A stretch of 34,048 bases of DNA from Minisyncoccota bacterium (lineage in GTDB: Bacteria; Patescibacteriota; Minisyncoccia; UBA6257; GWB1-50-10). Each line of letters opens with the position of its first letter. Position 1 is the stretch's first letter. The position numbers and the translations under genes are program-made. Location of the stretch: the NCBI GenBank assembly GCA_040880505.1, contig JBBDIH010000132.1, positions 1 to 34,048 of the forward strand, written 5' to 3'. Shown in pieces: positions 1 through 34,048 of the stretch. Below the pieces are notes generated by a model that was given only the letters and a program-made list of their open reading frames with translations, was not told the DNA's origin and searched no databases.

Positions 1-435
1 CCAGCGGTTTGATGTTGTATAATGTTCTGCTCCACAAAATGGCCACATATCATGCAATGTCCAAACGATTGGTTTTTGTATTTTTCCAAGATCTGCTATT
101 GAGATCATTTCATTGTTCACCCAATGCAGATGAATAATATCCGCATCCGATTTATTTAGAAATGAATGCCATCCGGAAGGTAGAATGGCCGGAGAGCAGT
201 TGTATTTACTATCAAAAAGGAGATCTGTACCTGTGTGAGTAAGTTCTTTCCGTATTAAACCATATAGTGAATGCCAACGTGATTTCGCGCCTAAAACAGA
301 ATGATCCATCTTTCTTGAAATAGTAACCTGCATCAAACTATCAACATTCCGTTCTCTTAAAGCTTCATGTATTCTATAAGCCGCCCTGGACGCACCGCCT
401 GAATAATCTGAATGACTGATTGAGAGTATCTTCAT
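1..435 (-). CDS. GT4 glycosyltransferase, WcaC-like (3' end runs off the window)
   Basis: Not in the ORF track; translated by hand from ATG at 435: MKILSISHSDYSGGASRAAYRIHEAL...DIIHLHWVNNEMISIADLGKIQKPIVWTLHDMWPFCGAEHY. The GGAxRAAYR and WTLHDMW motifs are typical of WcaC-type GT4 N-terminal domains. Confidence 0.88.
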   Translation of the reverse strand, partial: MKILSISHSDYSGGASRAAYRIHEALRERNVDSLMQVTISRKMDHSVLGAKSRWHSLYGLIRKELTHTGTDLLFDSKYNCSPAILPSGWHSFLNKSDADIIHLHWVNNEMISIADLGKIQKPIVWTLHDMWPFCGAEHYTTSNRW

Positions 436-472
436 GATTTTATTAATCTCATCTAATTCACAAAAATAACAT

Positions 473-2236
473 TTACCGACTCCATCCCGACAAAAAATAG
501 CGAAGTGTGAACATCAGGTTGGTATTTTTGTCGTCTTTCAAATGTCTTTGCCAACGATTATCCAATGATGTGAGCCTTAAATCTGCCTGAAGTTCTAAAT
601 TCCAGGGCAGAAATAGGAGTGAATGAAATCCATATCGTAATTCAATTTCATGCAGCGCATGCATTCTTGCTGATTCCCGGAATTGCACACTTCTGAAATA
701 CTCTTTGTTATCAAAAAGTCGGTCTTCATGCCATGCAATCCGGGTGAATGAGGCCCCAATCATTCCCAAAGGATGATAGAGTGAAAGTTTTGCATGTTGT
801 GCAGATGATCCGGGGCCGATACCGGCTCCCAAAAATTGCCCTTTTTGAGTATATCCCTGGATCACATGTTCATCTGTGTACCAGGTATTTCGATCATCTC
901 TAAACTGCGAACTAATCGATGAATTCTCAAGGGTTGACAATTCTGTATTCAGAACTAATTTCATATTTTTTGGCAGAGAAAAACGTTTCAAGAGCCCTAT
1001 TGTATAAGCTCTATTGAGCTCCGGTTCTGCCAACAAATCCCTGATTGTACGCTTATCATTGTTGACTCCCACTTCACCATATGCCTCAAACCCGGCCTCC
1101 GGAAAGTGCCATCGAAAAAAGAGAGACGTCATGGCAACATGATAATCGTGCAATGCCACGGTTTCACCATCCTGATTTATTTCTTTTGGGGGTTTAAATG
1201 CCATGAACAGATCCCCTGCTGAAAAAGAAACACCCCTGGCAGCAGAATAGGCAACCCTTGCAACACCCACATTAAGCCCCGGAACTGCATGATGGGAATA
1301 GTTCATGGTAATACCGGTAATATAGCGCCGATCATTTTCCGGATTCTCATCAAAAAACTCTGATTCCTGCAATCCACCCCAAAACCAATAGAATTCAAAC
1401 TGACCGATTTTTGATTGATAGGGTTTTTGAGTACCCAGAAAACCATGCAAAAAACCCGGTGCATTATTTCCAAGAATGAGCGGGTTTTTTAGAGATGGCC
1501 CTATCCAGAGATGTTCATTCGAAATACCTGCCCTTAAACCATAGTGTTGTAATTGAATGACAGAGTTACCCAAATCAAAATTGGATATTGATTCTTCACC
1601 AAATCGCTGAGGGGCATCAATCCAGGTCAGTTGCATAGCGTATCGAGATAAGCCGGGTTTTTTAGGTGCCCCGGTTATTTCTAAAAAATCATTTTGGTTA
1701 TATACAAAAGCAGGCCGAAAGGCTATTTTTAAAGGGCCGTTTTCATATCCAATACCCATTGAAAAGAGTGTGTTATTACCTACCCCCTGCCAAAGAGCAC
1801 CGGTATTTTCTCCAACATCCAGTTGGTTATTGTGTGACAGTAATAATGATGGTGAATAGATCTTTAACTTATCTGAGAAAATCGTTGGTGAAGCTGAACT
1901 TCTGAACCAGTTATGATCCTGCCATGGATGGGAAACAGGCAATTCTCCTTGTGCGTATTGCGAGTTCGACGAACGAAAATTCCATGTAATATTGCCTATT
2001 GCATTTTGATCTTCGGGTATGACGCGGAGATAGTGTTCTAATGGGTCGTTTATGGTGAGGGATTGGGCGTGGGTTGAGGTTGAGGTTAAGGTTAAGGTTG
2101 AGGTTAAGATTGAGATTAAGATTAGGTAGTTTAGGAGTTTAGGAGTTGAGGAGTTTAGGGGATGTTGAGGGTTTAGGGTTGGGGGTTTAGGGTTTAGTTT
2201 GTTTTTTGATGTGAAAATTTGGCCAATTTTCTTCAT
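473..2236 (-). CDS. Capsule assembly Wzi-family outer-membrane beta-barrel protein (paralog 1)
   Basis: Signal peptide ending THA|Q; GALWQGxGxN, WIGPxxxNPLILGNNAPGF and GQxLGAGIGPG motifs; aromatic C-terminal strand. Start is either ATG 2236 (hairpin loop) or ATG 2329 (ATGA overlap with the upstream stop); both are in frame. Confidence 0.75.
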   Translation of the reverse strand: MKKIGQIFTSKNKLNPKPPTLNPQHPLNSSTPKLLNYLILISILTSTLTLTSTSTHAQSLTINDPLEHYLRVIPEDQNAIGNITWNFRSSNSQYAQGELPVSHPWQDHNWFRSSASPTIFSDKLKIYSPSLLLSHNNQLDVGENTGALWQGVGNNTLFSMGIGYENGPLKIAFRPAFVYNQNDFLEITGAPKKPGLSRYAMQLTWIDAPQRFGEESISNFDLGNSVIQLQHYGLRAGISNEHLWIGPSLKNPLILGNNAPGFLHGFLGTQKPYQSKIGQFEFYWFWGGLQESEFFDENPENDRRYITGITMNYSHHAVPGLNVGVARVAYSAARGVSFSAGDLFMAFKPPKEINQDGETVALHDYHVAMTSLFFRWHFPEAGFEAYGEVGVNNDKRTIRDLLAEPELNRAYTIGLLKRFSLPKNMKLVLNTELSTLENSSISSQFRDDRNTWYTDEHVIQGYTQKGQFLGAGIGPGSSAQHAKLSLYHPLGMIGASFTRIAWHEDRLFDNKEYFRSVQFRESARMHALHEIELRYGFHSLLFLPWNLELQADLRLTSLDNRWQRHLKDDKNTNLMFTLRYFLSGWSR

Positions 2237-2336
2237 TTTACAGATCAGAACTCCTAAACTCCTAAACTTCTCAACCCCTAAACTCCACATCTCCTCAACC
2301 TTAACCTTAACCTCAATCTTAACCCTCATCTCAACC
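2072..2336. repeat. Nested inverted-repeat element built from tandem hexamer, octamer and heptamer arrays
   Basis: Left arm: 9x G(G/A)TT(G/A)A-type hexamers (2072-2125), 4x AGTT(T/G)AGG (2128-2159), about 4-5x TTTAGGG-like (2165-2197). Right arm: about 4.5x AACTCCTA-like (2249-2286), about 6x T(T/C)AA(C/T)C (2295-2336). Confidence 0.92.
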
Positions 2337-4113
2337 ACCCCTCTAAATGTTTTCTCACTGTGATTTCAAAACGGGCATTCACTTTGTCGTTGTAGCGAAC
2401 ATAGTTGTGATTCATGATAAAACTCAGATCGAGTGCTGCAGAAATTTCTAAATCATTGGACAGAAAACGGGTTGCACTTAATCCTGCCATCAGCTCGATA
2501 TTACGTACTTCCCAGCGTTCAATATCCGGATCGTTCACTCTGCGAATAGCAGAAAAAAAATCATCCACAAATACATCTGCGTAACTGATTCTCGCAAATT
2601 TCAATCCATAACTTCCTTTTGGGTGAAACAGATGAGTACTCAATACCTGAGTTTGACTTACCTGTCCAATACCGGCACCAACGATCTGTCCCCGGTTGGT
2701 GAATCCAAAATTGGGGTAGCGGTGTATGTACCATCGCCCTAAGGGCCCTGCTTCCCATGGATTACCTCCTCGCGTTAAGGTTGTTCGGTTGGCATTGAGC
2801 TGTGTGGTTTCAATATTTATGGAAAGCAACCTGTTTCCGGAAAGCGACATTGTTTTCAGTAAGCCGAACAGATAGGCCCGATGGTGGTCCGGTTGCAATC
2901 GAAAATCACGCCAATCCATATTATAGTCATTTCGTCCGAATTCACCATACACTTCAAAACCATAACCCGGAAGAACCCAGCGATAGTAGATGGATGCCAT
3001 CTGATTTGATTCTGTCGTTTCAGTACGGTCTTCTTCTGAAGGCAGATTATCTCTTAATACCGCCTCAAAAACTTTTTTTACCTGTGTCCATTTACCTGAA
3101 AACCCGGCCGGATAACGATCCATAAAAAGCCTGTTGAATCCGATGGTTAACCCATTCATAAATGAAGGGGAATAGGCTATATGAAGGGAAACTATGCTGT
3201 TCAGATTGTCACCAGGACGGTCATCCAGCCAATCCGATTTCTGAAGGGCACCATATTGATATTTAAACTCGAAATCACCAATCGGTGACACCAAGGGGCG
3301 ATAGGTAGCCAGATGAACATGTTTAAAGCCCGGCGCATTATAACTGAAAAAAAGCGGATTATGGATCGCAGGTCCGGTCCAGAACCGTGCATTGGAGAAT
3401 CCTGCTTTCAATCCCCACATCCGCAGTTCAGCATAACTGTCTCCAGGGTCAAACCAAGAATACGGATCGGGGCCGAATCTGCGAACATTGTCAATCCTAC
3501 GTATCGGAGTGGAATATTCAAAAACCCCCGATGGCATTTGCAGATCTCCCAAATCAAAATCAGCATTTTGAACAAAGCCTACTTGCGGTTGAAACCGAAT
3601 ATGCAACGGCCCCCAATTGGCCAAAATACCTGCTGAAAGAGCCGTATTATACCCTTTTCCTTGCCAGATCGCACCGTCATTGACACCCCGCGGAAGCGTG
3701 GAATTCCACGACTGAAACCATACCGGTTCAATCAATGCATACCGGATGCCGGCCGGCCCTTCCTTTCCTGCATCCAGAAAACGGTTAGTCATCAACTGCC
3801 AAGGATGTATTGTTTCGTCATTAATCTTTCGTGATGGAGTAAAAGGCCTTAGAGTAAAGGAAGCCGTTTCATCTACAGTTCCATTTAACTGAAGCAGCCT
3901 GTAATAATACTCCAACGGATCTCCTGTCGGCAGGTCGGATTTTATTTGGGCGTTGATTACCGTTGGGAAGAATAGGAGTGATATGAGGAAGCATAGCTTT
4001 TTGATCTCAGATTGGAGATTGGAGATTGGAGATCTCAGATGTGTCAACTCAAAACTAAACCATAAACACTTCTCAGATCGCATATCTCCAATCTGAAATC
4101 TGAGATCAATCAT
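2326..4113 (-). CDS. Capsule assembly Wzi-family outer-membrane beta-barrel protein (paralog 2)
   Basis: Same motifs as paralog 1 (GAIWQGKGYN, WTGPAIHNPLFFSYNAPGF, RGQIVGAGIG); signal peptide ending INA|Q. Start uncertain: ATG 4116/4113 overlapping the wzz stop, ATG 4083, or TTG 4047. Confidence 0.75.
   Translation of the reverse strand: MIDLRFQIGDMRSEKCLWFSFELTHLRSPISNLQSEIKKLCFLISLLFFPTVINAQIKSDLPTGDPLEYYYRLLQLNGTVDETASFTLRPFTPSRKINDETIHPWQLMTNRFLDAGKEGPAGIRYALIEPVWFQSWNSTLPRGVNDGAIWQGKGYNTALSAGILANWGPLHIRFQPQVGFVQNADFDLGDLQMPSGVFEYSTPIRRIDNVRRFGPDPYSWFDPGDSYAELRMWGLKAGFSNARFWTGPAIHNPLFFSYNAPGFKHVHLATYRPLVSPIGDFEFKYQYGALQKSDWLDDRPGDNLNSIVSLHIAYSPSFMNGLTIGFNRLFMDRYPAGFSGKWTQVKKVFEAVLRDNLPSEEDRTETTESNQMASIYYRWVLPGYGFEVYGEFGRNDYNMDWRDFRLQPDHHRAYLFGLLKTMSLSGNRLLSINIETTQLNANRTTLTRGGNPWEAGPLGRWYIHRYPNFGFTNRGQIVGAGIGQVSQTQVLSTHLFHPKGSYGLKFARISYADVFVDDFFSAIRRVNDPDIERWEVRNIELMAGLSATRFLSNDLEISAALDLSFIMNHNYVRYNDKVNARFEITVRKHLEGWLR
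4001..4109. repeat. Inverted repeat of GAGATTG-type heptamer arrays (38-bp arms, 33-nt loop)
   Basis: 4001-4038 ttgatct-cagattg-gagattg-gagattg-gagatct-cag versus the reverse complement of 4072-4109 ttgatct-cagattt-cagattg-gagatat-gcgatct-gag; 32/38 match by hand count. Confidence 0.9.
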
Positions 4114-5344
4114 CATCTTCCACTGCTTCGGGCTTATACGCCTGATAAAGCCTATTGATAGTAACATACCCTGCGCCCCAGATGAAACCTATCAGGACTG
4201 ATATTATGGTTGTGCTGACCGGATTGGGGCGAACCGGGCGTGATGGTACTTGTGCGGGATCTACTTCGGTAAAAAGCGGGGTATCTTCACGTAACCTCAT
4301 TCGGGTTTCTTCTACCTGGCGTGACCAAGTGCTATAGATATTGAATGCGAGGTCGTAATCATTCTGAAGCCTCTGGCGTTCAATCTGTGCCATGGCGGTC
4401 AGGTTGCCACGATTGCGGTCAGTAAAATCAGCCAGTGCTATCTGAGCCTGTTCATATCGTTCACGACTCACCTCATACTGCTCTTCGAGGAAATTAAGCT
4501 GATCACGCGTTTTCCGGACTTCAAAATTGATCATTTCCTGCATCAGGATATCAGTAGCCAGAGATGCGAGATCGGCAGCCGCATAAGCATCGGGCATTCG
4601 GGCTGAGACTTTCATAACTCCATCTTCATTTAAAATGACGATACGATCTGCAAGTTCTTCAATGATTCCATTCATGCCTGATTTAGGTACAAAAAAGGGC
4701 CTTCGCATTCGAACATCATCCTCTACAACCGGATTGTCCTGTGACATCAACTCCTCTTCCGATCTATTTTCTTCATTGTCAGACGTGATGATCTCCTCTT
4801 CTGCAGGCAATTGAACCGAAGCCGGATTCATGAAAGAGAGCAACCTTCTTGGAAAATTAATGATCGTCCTTAAAGAGCTAATGATAAATGGATCCTGATA
4901 CACATTCCGGAAATAGTCATAGGCGGACATCTCTTCGTATTGATAAAAACGGAGCGGTTCTTCGGCAAGTTTGGAACCCACCGGATATGTGGAGATCAGC
5001 ATGGGAAGCATGCTCTCCGAAACTAATTGTCCGCCCATACCGCCGGGAATATCATTCAGGTTAATCCCGGCCAGCCCGGCCAGTCCACCCAGGTTGCCGC
5101 TAACACCGCCGGCCCCTGCTCTTGTATAGGTCAGGATTGAATTTTCAGCCTCATACTCTTTCCCCATACTGTAATCGATGATCAGTCCCAAAACAAGGGT
5201 CACAGCCACGACAATCAGGATTCGGTTTTTTTCACCCCACAGAAGGGAGAAGAGCTGTTTGATTTTTACGATTAGTTCACCAATGGTTATTTCATCGTTG
5301 TAGATTTCATTTACGGTTTTGTCTGATTTATTATTCTTACTCAC
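4106..5344 (-). CDS. wzz: Polysaccharide co-polymerase / chain-length determinant (Wzz/GumC-like, GNVR-type C-terminus)
   Basis: N-terminal DEITIGEL plus TM helix, GGLAGLAGINL motif, coiled-coil region, VDPAQVPSRPVRP followed by a C-terminal TM helix; GTG start. Confidence 0.82.
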   Translation of the reverse strand: MSKNNKSDKTVNEIYNDEITIGELIVKIKQLFSLLWGEKNRILIVVAVTLVLGLIIDYSMGKEYEAENSILTYTRAGAGGVSGNLGGLAGLAGINLNDIPGGMGGQLVSESMLPMLISTYPVGSKLAEEPLRFYQYEEMSAYDYFRNVYQDPFIISSLRTIINFPRRLLSFMNPASVQLPAEEEIITSDNEENRSEEELMSQDNPVVEDDVRMRRPFFVPKSGMNGIIEELADRIVILNEDGVMKVSARMPDAYAAADLASLATDILMQEMINFEVRKTRDQLNFLEEQYEVSRERYEQAQIALADFTDRNRGNLTAMAQIERQRLQNDYDLAFNIYSTWSRQVEETRMRLREDTPLFTEVDPAQVPSRPVRPNPVSTTIISVLIGFIWGAGYVTINRLYQAYKPEAVEDDD

Positions 5345-5410
5345 GCATAGGTTTTTAGAGATTCTTCAGGTAGTACTACAATTTCTATGATCCTAAACAG
5401 ATCAAACGGA

Positions 5411-5440
5411 CTAAAAATAATAAAATTTTAAGACTAACAA
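5411..5440 (-). promoter_or_regulatory. Possible Bacteroidota-type sigma70 promoter upstream of the wzz-wzi-wzi block
   Basis: Minus strand TTG-N18-TATTTTTAG resembles the -33 TTG / -7 TAnnTTTG consensus. It lies in an AT-rich intergenic gap, so it may be chance. Confidence 0.25.
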
Positions 5441-5517
5441 GAGTGTAAAATTTTTCATGCTACACTAAATGATATTTTATCATAGTCAAGGATAAAATCA
5501 AAAATAGTGAAAAATGA

Positions 5518-6654
5518 TCACTTCTCATTTTCACTATTTTCTGCAAGCACCTCTTCATAAACCTTATATGTCTGTTCAAACATTCTGTCGAAAGTAAAGT
5601 GATCTTCATAACGTTTCCGGCCGGCTTTTCCCATTTTTTGCCTTAAACCTGCATCCTCAATCAACAATTTCAATTTTCCTCTTAACATACCAACATCACC
5701 TCTGGCAATCGAAAAGCCGGTTTCACCTTCTACAATCGCTTCCGCCGCGCCGCCTACATCCGAAACGATTACAGGTAATCCGGCACGCATAGCCTCAAGT
5801 GTAGATCGGGGGAACCCTTCCCAGTTTGAGATGAGAGTAAATATCTGAGATTTGGACAATATCTCTGCTACCTCCTCACTTCGGCCGTAAAATGTAATAT
5901 GATCAAGACATCCAAATTGGCCTGCAACTTTCCGGATTTCATGAAGCAACGGGCCATCTCCAACCAGGTGCAGATGATATCCTGTCAAATTTTTTAGTGC
6001 TTTAAGCAAAGTAATATGATCTTTTGGCTGATCGAACCTGGCAGTCATACAAATATTTACAGGTGCAGATTTTTCTGGATATGCCATCAAAAAAGACTCT
6101 ACATCGGGCATTCCATTATGTATAGTCTTCAATAAACCTTTCTGAACAGGAAGTTGATACAATCCAATTGAACAATCATAATCTGAAACACAAATGATAG
6201 AATCCGATTTTTTTGCAACAATTCCCTCAAGATTCTTGAATAACCATCTCTTGAATCCATTTTTACCACCTGTAAACGACCATCCGTGCGCTGTAAAGAT
6301 CACCGGTATTCCAAGTGAATGTGCTGCAAGACGGCCCAGAAAACCAATTTTTGAAGAATGTGCTGAAACAATATCCGGATTCAAATTCCGAATCAACTTC
6401 TTCAGTTCTCTATAAACCTTTACATCTTTTAGTGGTCGAATCTCCCGTTCAAGTTCAGTAATTGAATGATAGGTGATGTGTAGTTCATTCAAGTGATCGG
6501 CAAAATATCCTTCTTTCCCAAGTAATACTATCGGTTGTTCACCAGTATCCATCAATTTCAAACAGAGATCTCGAACATGAATACTTGAACCGCCAATGGT
6601 ATCGGACCTTGTTAATAGGAAAAGTATTTTTATTGGTCGACCTGTAGTGTTCAA
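5518..6654 (-). CDS. GT4 glycosyltransferase
   Basis: HSSKIG, FTAHGWSF, ARFDQPKDH and the EX7E motif EGFPRSTLEAM...SDVGG. Confidence 0.92.
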   Translation of the reverse strand: MNTTGRPIKILFLLTRSDTIGGSSIHVRDLCLKLMDTGEQPIVLLGKEGYFADHLNELHITYHSITELEREIRPLKDVKVYRELKKLIRNLNPDIVSAHSSKIGFLGRLAAHSLGIPVIFTAHGWSFTGGKNGFKRWLFKNLEGIVAKKSDSIICVSDYDCSIGLYQLPVQKGLLKTIHNGMPDVESFLMAYPEKSAPVNICMTARFDQPKDHITLLKALKNLTGYHLHLVGDGPLLHEIRKVAGQFGCLDHITFYGRSEEVAEILSKSQIFTLISNWEGFPRSTLEAMRAGLPVIVSDVGGAAEAIVEGETGFSIARGDVGMLRGKLKLLIEDAGLRQKMGKAGRKRYEDHFTFDRMFEQTYKVYEEVLAENSENEK

Positions 6655-30067: not shown

Positions 30068-30069
30068 AA

Positions 30070-30101
30070 GGTTTAGGAGTTTAGAGGTTTAGGAGTTTAT
30101 A
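30070..30101. repeat. Four AGTTTAGG-type octamers (single arm) across the wzz-fragment stop and ABC-gene start region
   Basis: ggtttagg-agtttaga-ggtttagg-agtttata; same unit as 2128-2159. Confidence 0.8.
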
Positions 30102-33728: not shown

Positions 33729-33759
33729 GGGTTTAGAGTTTAGGGTTTAGGGTTTAGGG
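33729..33759. repeat. GGGTTTA heptamer array (single arm) forming the end of the four-helix-bundle gene
   Basis: gggttta-gagttta-gggttta-gggttta-ggg; encodes LNPKP* and ends 2 nt before the wzz ATG. Confidence 0.88.
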
Positions 33760-34048
33760 AATTGTGTAGACCGCCAATTAAGCCCGTAATTTCTTCCATT
33801 TTTTCACGAAGAATAACATATTCGTCATCTTGTAAATATTTCAATCGCTTTGCTATGATTAATTGACTAACCACTTCAATAGATGAACTGTAAGCTATAA
33901 CATAAAACCGCTTTTGATCTTTTTTACTTTTCCTCGAACTGCCTTCTGCAATATTTGAAGCTATCGATACAGCCGCTCTTCGTATCTGACTTGTCAACCC
34001 ATACTTTTCCTCACTCGGAAACTTCCTGGTAATTCTATAAAGCTCACA
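33740..34048 (-). CDS. Four-helix-bundle protein (23S rRNA IVP / bAvd-like family), 5' end outside the window
   Basis: The frame is open to the window edge: CELYRITRKFPSEEKYGLTSQIRRAAVSIASNIAEGSSR...; FPxxExYGLxSQxRRAAVSIxSNIAEG is the family signature. Confidence 0.93.
   Translation of the reverse strand, partial: CELYRITRKFPSEEKYGLTSQIRRAAVSIASNIAEGSSRKSKKDQKRFYVIAYSSSIEVVSQLIIAKRLKYLQDDEYVILREKMEEITGLIGGLHNSLNPKP

Follow-up and report, generated by a model that had tools for sequence, protein, structure and literature searches.

A nested hairpin of short tandem repeats between two wzi genes and the predicted use of one arm as a signal peptide

Between two neighbouring capsule-anchor genes (wzi) on a contig of 34,048 nucleotides (nt) (JBBDIH010000132.1, assembly GCA_040880505.1, catalogued as a Minisyncoccota bacterium), tandem arrays of 6-, 7- and 8-nt units form a long palindrome that overlaps the stop codon of the first gene and runs into the second. 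The contig, C132 of a 1.36-Mb bin of 315 contigs (33% G+C), was analysed whole and is called the window here. To what kind of element does such a hairpin between two co-directional genes belong, how was it built, and what has become of the genes around it? A preliminary description had taken it for three different repeat elements that landed successively at one junction, each within the last. On sequence comparison we favour, with moderate confidence, another answer: the wzi-wzi hairpin would be a gene-less member of a family of short-tandem-repeat clamps resembling intervening sequences (IVSs), and one of its arms would be coding, a claim that we make jointly for the class and for the arm.

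Architecture of the wzi-wzi hairpin

Tandem Repeats Finder placed GGTTRA hexamers at 2072-2124, TTAGGAGT octamers at 2122-2159 and heptamer-type TTTAGGG units as far as 2197 on the plus strand, and on the same strand complementary C-rich arrays of period 8 (2249-2286/2300) and period 6 (2293-2336). The stretch 2072-2159 is complementary to 2249-2336, with hexamers outside and octamers inside. An inverted-repeat search resolved arm pairs of 76 nt at 75% (2084-2159/2261-2336), 33 nt at 94% (2071-2103/2293-2325) and 20 nt at 100% (2128-2147/2249-2268), the two shorter of which share a single gapless register. Both wzi genes are encoded on the minus strand; on their sense strand the 5' arm is G-rich, and 2072-2197 contains no G at all in 126 nt. 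Throughout the 34-kb window only two inverted repeats have arms longer than 40 nt, this hairpin and another at 4001-4109.

As minus-strand RNA, 2050-2345 folds with a minimum free energy (MFE) of -115.1 kcal/mol against -65.09 +/- 4.65 kcal/mol for shuffled sequences (z-score -10.75; none of 200 shuffles equalled it), and the plus-strand RNA of the hairpin region gave a z-score of -9.74. The nested, mirror-ordered hairpin of the preliminary description, with hexamers outside and octamers inside, is borne out and folds far better than shuffles; its remark that polymerase slippage alone does not explain mirror-ordered arrays of different periods is likewise supported. It had also rightly placed the upstream stop (TGA 2326-2328) in the outermost arm and an ATG (2234-2236) in the loop. 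Its claim that the heptamer tract has no local partner stands in part: the tract is an unpaired 25-nt bulge in the MFE structure, but the inverted-repeat search also found weak alternative partners of 13-14 nt at 85-86%. The notion of three different elements, however, finds no support in the units, which are variants of one theme (GGTTRA, GGGTTTA, GGAGTTTA/GGAGTTGA).

The hairpin is not an artefact of one sample's assembly: run X1, from the possible source sample, yielded a 3408-nt contig over 1500-2374, and run X3, from a second sample of the same study, a 251-nt contig over 2040-2290, both with 0 differences. A chimeric join of repeat-bearing reads would find some encouragement in the foreign contigs that the repeats attract (the excess depth on 2061-2162 comes from many other contigs of the same metagenomes, with unrelated flanks) and in the placement of the contig in a bin where it probably does not belong. 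Set against these are the X1 contig, which spans the whole hairpin, the X3 contig, and a reading frame and cleavage motif that continue unbroken across the hairpin, and we regard a chimera as barely credible.

Conventional regulatory features were sought in the same region. An Rfam scan of 1-6000 (E at most 1) returned no rRNA and nothing above gathering score, the three sub-threshold hits being chance matches to snoRNA and miRNA models, and a scan of 1800-4400 for sigma-70 promoters and terminators found nothing inside the hairpin (2072-2336). An intrinsic terminator was considered and rejected: no U-tract follows the stem, and the 3' arm is succeeded by CCCACGCCCAAUCCC. As a separate observation, the sole canonical G-quadruplex motif of the 34-kb window (four runs of at least three G, loops of 1-7) lies at 2158-2185 on the plus strand, overlapping the heptamer tract on the template strand of wzi-2.

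The pairing itself raises the question of whether the hairpin arose on the spot, by local inverted duplication (template switching or quasipalindrome extension), as a neutral by-product unrelated to any cassette. On this view the C-rich octamer and hexamer array of the wzi-2 presequence would be old, and a single replication error in the window's lineage would have placed an inverted copy of it just upstream. Such an event would account for two long stretches pairing in one gapless register at 94% and 100%, for the mirrored order of the periods, which a single inverted copy of an octamer-hexamer block would give, and for the GTTGAG/CTCAAC variant unit found in both arms. Against it, the T-type hexamers adjoin the octamers in one arm but are separated from them in the other, where they are distal, and no copy of the heptamer tract exists. 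We consider a local origin of this kind unlikely.

Coding use of the C-rich arm

Across 2338-2060 (279 nt) the wzi-2 frame is free of stops, while the alternative frames have 14 and 11. Downstream of the arrays no ATG, GTG or TTG codon occurs in frame before the conserved cleavage region (..HA↓QS..DPLEHY, the arrow marking the cleavage site; motif A↓QS...DP(L/I)E), and translation must therefore begin upstream of the arrays. In five of six close homologs the spacing of AQS to the DP(L/I/F)E motif is unchanged. The candidates for the start are ATG 2236, where the gene model of database protein P0003 begins, and the ATGA overlap with the wzi-1 stop (2329-2326), and the choice of start is uncertain. 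The 5' arm, too, is open in the wzi-2 frame (0 stops vs 4 and 9), as would fit wzi-2 translation coupled to that of wzi-1; this is the weaker evidence, because exactly one of the three frames is open.

The translation of 2072-2125 gives the hydrophobic core and the c-region of the predicted wzi-2 signal peptide, ending in HA↓QS. In the T-type hexamers (TCTTAA, TCTCAA) Thr codons become Ile codons, yielding LLNYLILISIL, a repeat-encoded core with a mean hydropathy of 2.45, as compared with 2.56 for the core of wzi-1. Furthermore, the periodicity of the heptamers and octamers predicts an in-frame TAA at three sites (offsets 156, 189 and 213 from 2338). At each of them the unit deviates (CCA, TCA and a 9-nt step), whereas out-of-frame sites are variant in one case out of seven; by a hand calculation, the chance that four variants among ten positions cover all three in-frame ones is 4/120 = 0.033. 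At the level of predicted translation, it is shown that unit variants keep the wzi-2 frame open across the arrays and that the C-rich arm and the heptamer tract now serve as coding sequence, supplying n-, h- and c-regions for the signal peptide of wzi-2. The ATG, which the preliminary description had placed in the loop, the heptamer tract and the 3' arm are thus no spacer; they are read as the translated N-terminus of wzi-2, and we infer that one arm was domesticated as a signal peptide. A 59%-identical protein (P0004) has an ordinary signal peptide and a repeat-free N-terminus. The presequences of Wzi-1 and Wzi-2 both end in A↓Q, a pattern known from Bacteroidetes substrates of signal peptidase I (PMC5837995).

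Coding arrays whose units are not multiples of three, placed between a start codon and a mature surface-polysaccharide protein, bring to mind a contingency locus of simple sequence repeats (SSRs), in which slippage of the 7- and 8-nt arrays would switch Wzi-2 on and off and so vary the phase of capsule anchoring. The likeness extends to the early position of the arrays in a surface-related open reading frame (ORF), and in Haemophilus influenzae SSR switching has been tied to structure in the 5' untranslated region and to RNase III (PMC12721329). The arrays are, however, 77-90% matches in Tandem Repeats Finder rather than the pure tracts of a contingency locus, and the variants that interrupt them are the frame-keeping ones. 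No length variant was seen in the X1 and X3 contigs, although contigs drop rare variants. Moreover, the arrays are kept in an ortholog at 52% identity, beyond the need of a hypermutable tract, and an inverted partner arm is foreign to that mechanism. We give little credence to a switch of this type.

The nearest available relative of the junction is locus L038 of the Balneolaceae metagenome-assembled genome (MAG) G041, which has the same wzi-1/wzi-2 pair (wzi-2 51.6% and wzi-1 48.0% identical; cross comparisons 32-35%). Here too the stop and start overlap in ATGA, and this homologous ATGA is the called start of wzi-2. The L038 wzi-2 presequence contains C-rich octamers (3924-3958, x4.4) followed by hexamers (3961-4001, x6.8), which read (LT)n in the frame used in the window, ...LNPSTPQPLNLKTLILTLTLTLTLTSAHA↓QS, and end at most two codons from the window's end point; the frame across the arrays has 0 stops, against 9 and 1. 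A complementary G-rich arm is absent from L038, its space being filled by a G/T-rich array of the GTTTATKG type, and the junction RNA folds no better than shuffles (z-score +1.50; 185 of 200 shuffles as good).

The L038 coding arm stands alone, without a partner, and the arms therefore do not vary in pairs. The preliminary description had expected them to be gained or lost together and had itself named independent variation as the contrary outcome, which is what the solitary C-rich octamer and hexamer arm (z +1.5) represents. On this comparison the G-rich arm is dispensable, since the ortholog lacks it. A C-rich composite arm without its complement is also what local inverted duplication would start from, and L038 favours that origin to this extent. 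Closer relatives of the junction were not found, the best reaching 52% identity among GTDB representatives and 45% among metagenome contigs.

Clamp cassettes, a second hairpin and dispersed arrays

At its far end the window carries a gene of the four-helix-bundle family PF05635 (23S_rRNA_IVP), which ends in CCCTAAA units, as found in the heptamer tract of the hairpin. The frame of that tract (LNPKP) is the same at the end of the gene, a one-in-three coincidence. We examined 80 loci of relatives of this gene, 77 of them with both flanks at least 150 nt long, and counted a locus as armed when alignment of its upstream flank with the reverse-complemented downstream flank scored 40 or more. Reverse-complementary flanks occur in 28 of the 77 loci, against 1/77 when the flank was reversed but uncomplemented and 0/76 when the flank of another locus was used (median scores 36 vs 19 and 18). 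The arms of the 28 armed loci are tandem arrays, with period 7 best in 23 and a self-match of at least 0.75 in 11; 19 of these loci have a G-rich upstream arm and one has a C-rich one. Two nested array types, giving two-period arms, were found at L283; the GTTTAG/CTAAAC core of the window's units is used by L270 and L271, and AGTTGAG/CTCAACT by L302.

G041 has a single PF05635 gene, flanked by an rfbB-like gene and the ATG of an rfbA-like gene. Its upstream bracket consists of GGTTRA hexamers and then GTTTCTK heptamers, its downstream bracket of MAGAAAC heptamers and then TCAACC units; the rfbB-like TAA stop is inside the outer arm, and the rfbA-like ATG directly follows the C-rich arm. Judged by its sequence, this cassette is of the same nested multi-period design as the window hairpin; its outer hexamers are of that hairpin's family, but its loop holds a gene. 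The window hairpin shares with such cassettes the inverted tandem arms of 6-9-nt units, the polarity (G-rich upstream, C-rich downstream) and the position wedged between a stop and the next co-directional start. It has no four-helix-bundle gene in its loop, and we therefore class it only as a gene-less relative and not as a cassette. In a full-text search, outside which most subscription journals lie, we found no description of PF05635 genes or gene-less hairpins with tandem-repeat arms inside operons.

The second long inverted repeat of the window lies one gene upstream, at the junction of wzz(GNVR) and wzi-1 (Table 1). It folds with a z-score of -5.06, its G-rich arm begins at the upstream stop (TGA 4106-4108), and its C-rich heptamer arm (CCAATCT) falls within the wzi-1 presequence, where the frame is again open (0 stops vs 5 and 5). 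A terminator-like site at 4098-4071 was read as part of its 5' arm. This independent hairpin of the same design argues against a one-off inverted duplication at the wzi-wzi junction, as do the G-rich-after-stop, C-rich-before-start polarity and the hexamer family shared with the PF05635 gene of G041.

Arrays of these families are also scattered through G041, where the hexamer pattern was counted 29 times (control 1), the octamer pattern 12 times (control 0) and the heptamer pattern three times (control 0). The genomes G042-G045 gave 0-1 matches, and 80 further genomes from the family of G041 were at background, the highest at 5 vs 1. The G041 arrays occur at gene junctions, where some stop at an ATG (L259) or adjoin one (L266), and arrays of differing period are often joined. 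At L257 a G-rich array 3 nt after a stop faces C-rich octamers, which makes a gene-less hexamer/octamer hairpin (-44 vs -34.1 kcal/mol; z-score -2.5; 6 of 200 shuffles as good). L085 and L260 have a common heptamer-GCGCGAAGCGYCC-hexamer junction, and its identity at two loci implies that composites are copied whole. Unit families, and some composite arms with their common linker, are thus dispersed in G041, and no second full copy of the hairpin was found. A general link between arrays and PF05635 in this genome was considered and rejected: there is one such gene, and most arrays are not adjacent to it. As an observation apart, L087, L090 and L256 have longer flanks in common around their hexamer arrays, which points to larger dispersed elements that carry arrays.

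These composites bear on the order of assembly. Successive insertion of hexamer, octamer and heptamer elements, each inside the previous one, would agree with stop/start junctions as recurrent sites and with the nested arms of different period around PF05635 genes (L283, G041), as if one armed element had entered the loop of another. Yet composite multi-period arms exist ready-made elsewhere, in the PF05635 cassette of G041, at L283 and at the two G041 loci whose heptamer-linker-hexamer composite recurs with the same linker, copied whole; the octamer and hexamer arrays of L038 are of one polarity only; the heptamer tract is partnerless; and the units are close variants of each other. The successive landings of the preliminary description are in our estimate improbable.

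Solo arrays at gene junctions are present in the window as well (Table 1). The heptamer array at 33729-33759 is probably the downstream arm of a cassette whose upstream arm lies past the contig end; the G-rich upstream arm expected for the PF05635 gene was not found elsewhere in the bin. Beside these cassettes we noted, in a Saprospiraceae MAG (L220, 1040-1500), a seemingly frame-broken four-helix-bundle gene before a transporter gene, followed by a short G-rich/C-rich hairpin of CTCATAAA-type units.

Table 1 Features of the window discussed in the text (positions are those of the 34,048-nt stretch).
Feature	Position	Strand	Remarks
wzi-2	473..2236	-	587 aa from ATG 2236; ORF open back to 2338; Pfam PF14052 Wzi
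Outer 3' arm	2072..2125	-	C-rich hexamers TCTTAA / CCTYAA, predicted translation LILISILTSTLTLTSTST
Inner 3' arm	2128..2159	-	C-rich octamers CTCCTAAA / CTCCTCAA, translated
Heptamer tract	2165..2197	-	CCCTAAA on sense strand; unpaired in MFE structure; translated KLNPKPPTLNPQ
Loop, ~51 nt	2198..2248	-	ATG 2234-2236 in A-rich context; small local stem AAAAUUGGCCAAAUUUU
Inner 5' arm	2249..2292	-	G-rich octamers GGAGTTTA / GGGGTTGA
Outer 5' mRNA arm	2293..2336	-	G-rich hexamers, GGTTRA type; includes wzi-1 stop
wzi-1 stop TGA	2326..2328	-	In outer arm; overlaps in-frame ATG 2327-2329 (ATGA)
wzi-1	2326..4116	-	ORF open to 4167; candidate starts ATG 4116, ATG 4113, ATG 4083, TTG ~4053; Pfam PF14052 Wzi
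Second hairpin, wzz(GNVR)/wzi-1 junction	4001..4109	-	44-nt arms, 84% complementary, 21-nt loop, 109-nt palindrome
Solo C-rich octamer array, CTCCTAAA type	30069..30099	-	Overlaps upstream stop; ends 2 nt before TTG start of ABC transporter
Solo C-rich heptamer array, CCCTAAA x4.4	33729..33759	-	3' end of four-helix-bundle gene; overlaps stop; ends 3 nt before Wzz gene ATG (33726)
Four-helix-bundle gene, PF05635 (23S_rRNA_IVP)	33743..34048	-	Cut by contig end; C-terminus ..NSLNPKP* runs into CCCTAAA array

Possible function, known systems and origin of the contig

How might such a clamp act? In the design that we propose for this lineage-specific family, a G-rich composite arm starts at the stop of the upstream gene, and a complementary C-rich composite arm, here G-free, runs up to or into the downstream start; the same clamp design brackets PF05635 genes in G041 and in many phyla. 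Within the operon transcript the arms would pair into an imperfect duplex of ~80-90 bp, with the start codon in the loop and no U-tract. RNase III generally prefers long double-stranded RNA, and by analogy with IVS stems the duplex would most likely be an RNase III target and a barrier to ribosomes. Expression of wzi-2 might then be uncoupled from, or lowered relative to, that of wzi-1, and the G-free leader, either free or locked in the duplex, could set the wzi-2 level. The element may equally be tolerated selfish DNA with only an incidental effect. Because cleavage within the stem would detach the body of wzi-2 from the loop ATG, the effect to be expected would be down-regulation or uncoupling, or else mere tolerance. 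Our confidence in any specific RNA mechanism is lower than that in the assignment to a class.

Several points weigh against the reading of the hairpin as a gene-less clamp. Descent of gene-less hairpins from cassettes is conjectural at the wzi-wzi locus. The loop of 51 nt shows no recognisable vestige of PF05635, and its ORF (MKKIGQIF) is unlike the N-termini of 22 relatives; we do not claim it as a gutted four-helix-bundle gene. Among the PF05635 loci themselves, no more than 28 of 77 reached the arm threshold. G041 holds many arrays and a single PF05635 gene, which means that arrays can spread without the gene, and the genome-wide behaviour of the arrays is inferred from G041 rather than from the contig's own genome. 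The order of hexamer variants is not mirrored between the arms. The comparison with L038 cannot order events, as a coding arm is constrained and a non-coding arm is free to decay. Finally, cleavage of the stem would part the loop ATG from the wzi-2 body, a step whose benefit is not obvious.

A broader generalisation, which we put forward only tentatively, would see the hairpins at wzi junctions as non-autonomous representatives of insertable clamp cassettes, a widespread class that inserts exactly between the stop of one operon gene and the start of the next, undergoes IVS-like processing as RNA and can be domesticated; rRNA IVSs with a four-helix-bundle gene would then be the known special case. 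As part of this generalisation, the arm may have been kept as a working signal peptide in two lineages whose proteins are ~50% identical.

The known systems that come nearest are the ORF-bearing 23S rRNA IVSs with an S23p/PF05635 gene (Coxiella burnetii, Leptospira, Xanthomonas), in which, as here, a loop is enclosed by a long and stable stem of complementary termini (PMC4990558). The stems of IVSs consist of terminal inverted repeats and are cut by RNase III in mid-stem (PMC4990558). The IVS protein family is also represented in the window (33743-34048) and in G041, within arms of the same repeat families. In contrast to an IVS, however, the window hairpin is situated in a protein-coding operon, between two PF14052 genes and not in an rRNA helix. 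It has the stable stem, whereas its ~51-nt loop carries no PF05635 ORF, the contig's only one being at 33743-34048, and its arms are 6-8-nt tandem arrays with nested periods, one of them translated.

Cyanobacterial STRR (short tandemly repeated repetitive) sequences provide one example of dispersed short tandem repeats. Others are the TAACTGA heptamer arrays of Beggiatoaceae, cyanobacteria and some Bacteroidetes, short intergenic tandem units of sporadic distribution (PMC4679880), and the GGGNATC G-rich repeats of Xanthomonas and Nostoc (PMC4692102). Like these, the 6-8-nt units studied here are scattered in one lineage, lie between co-directional genes and often end a few bases from a start, where the G-rich strand is antisense. 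Unlike the dispersed heptamer arrays, they have different unit sequences, and in the window arrays of several periods make up composite arms, which face an inverted partner and are read as protein.

Palindromes are likewise known from other settings. Rickettsia palindromic elements (RPEs) are palindromic repeats in frame within protein genes, with a defined consensus of 100-150 bp. The window palindrome resembles them in lying in an ORF without breaking its frame and in adding a peptide segment, and differs in being built of 6-8-nt arrays, with no full-length copy found elsewhere. Intercistronic palindromes of the REP/BIME type (repetitive extragenic palindromes and bacterial interspersed mosaic elements), of ~35 nt, shape the stability of operon mRNA. 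As with these, the window stem-loop begins right after an upstream stop in an operon and has no U-tract; in contrast to them, it measures ~265 nt, is made up of tandem units and extends into the coding part of the next gene. The distinguishing trait of the locus is the gene-less nested form with an arm translated and conserved as a predicted signal peptide.

The locus connects the dispersed 6-8-nt tandem repeats found in some bacterial lineages, ORF-bearing rRNA IVSs and hairpins inside operons, subjects that are usually handled separately, and offers a concrete case of repeat DNA turned coding, in which hexamer repeats spell out a predicted signal peptide. Should the stems be cleaved or stop ribosomes, they would form an unrecognised layer of control over gene ratios in polysaccharide operons. 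Gene callers and binning tools are both misled here, by an uncertain start choice and by an outer-membrane Wzi contig in a bin of the candidate phyla radiation (CPR).

Indeed, the contig was probably binned wrongly, or else acquired, and would come from the FCB group (Fibrobacteres-Chlorobi-Bacteroidetes) rather than from the CPR, because none of the bin's 40 relatives (genomes of 0.5-1.3 Mb) has a Wzi match; because the tetranucleotide correlation of C132 with the rest of the bin is the lowest (0.935; the 14 other contigs of 12 kb or more reach 0.96-0.996); because it is the sole contig of the bin with these repeat families and the sole one with a PF05635 gene; because the best named Wzi relatives are from Balneolaceae and the window's ABC transporter shares 47-64% identity with proteins of Bacteroidota; and because the presequences end in A↓Q.

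Repeats were encountered near other wzi genes as well. At a distant Wzi locus (28% identity; L167, 2100-2291) inverted octamers (CACAGAAA x3.9 and TTTCTGTG x3) stand 137 nt apart directly after the wzi stop, and the fold has a z-score of -3.49. A CTCAATA heptamer array (x5.6; L008, 2131-2169, also L101, 557-595) forms part of the coding sequence of a Balneolaceae wzi gene and is translated as ..SIPNTQYSIPNT.., and in a Rhodohalobacter MAG (L007, 1849-1926) an intergenic (CTCAAC)x13 array is found ~85 nt upstream of the wzi start. Hexamer arrays before the ABC-transporter gene in other Bacteroidota were examined as candidates and set aside as unrelated to the repeats of the window; they are the (GY)n-coding tails of the upstream gene. 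At L172, L179, L199, L213 and L215 (~1350-1450) these (GY)n tails resemble tyrosine clusters of the BY-kinase type.

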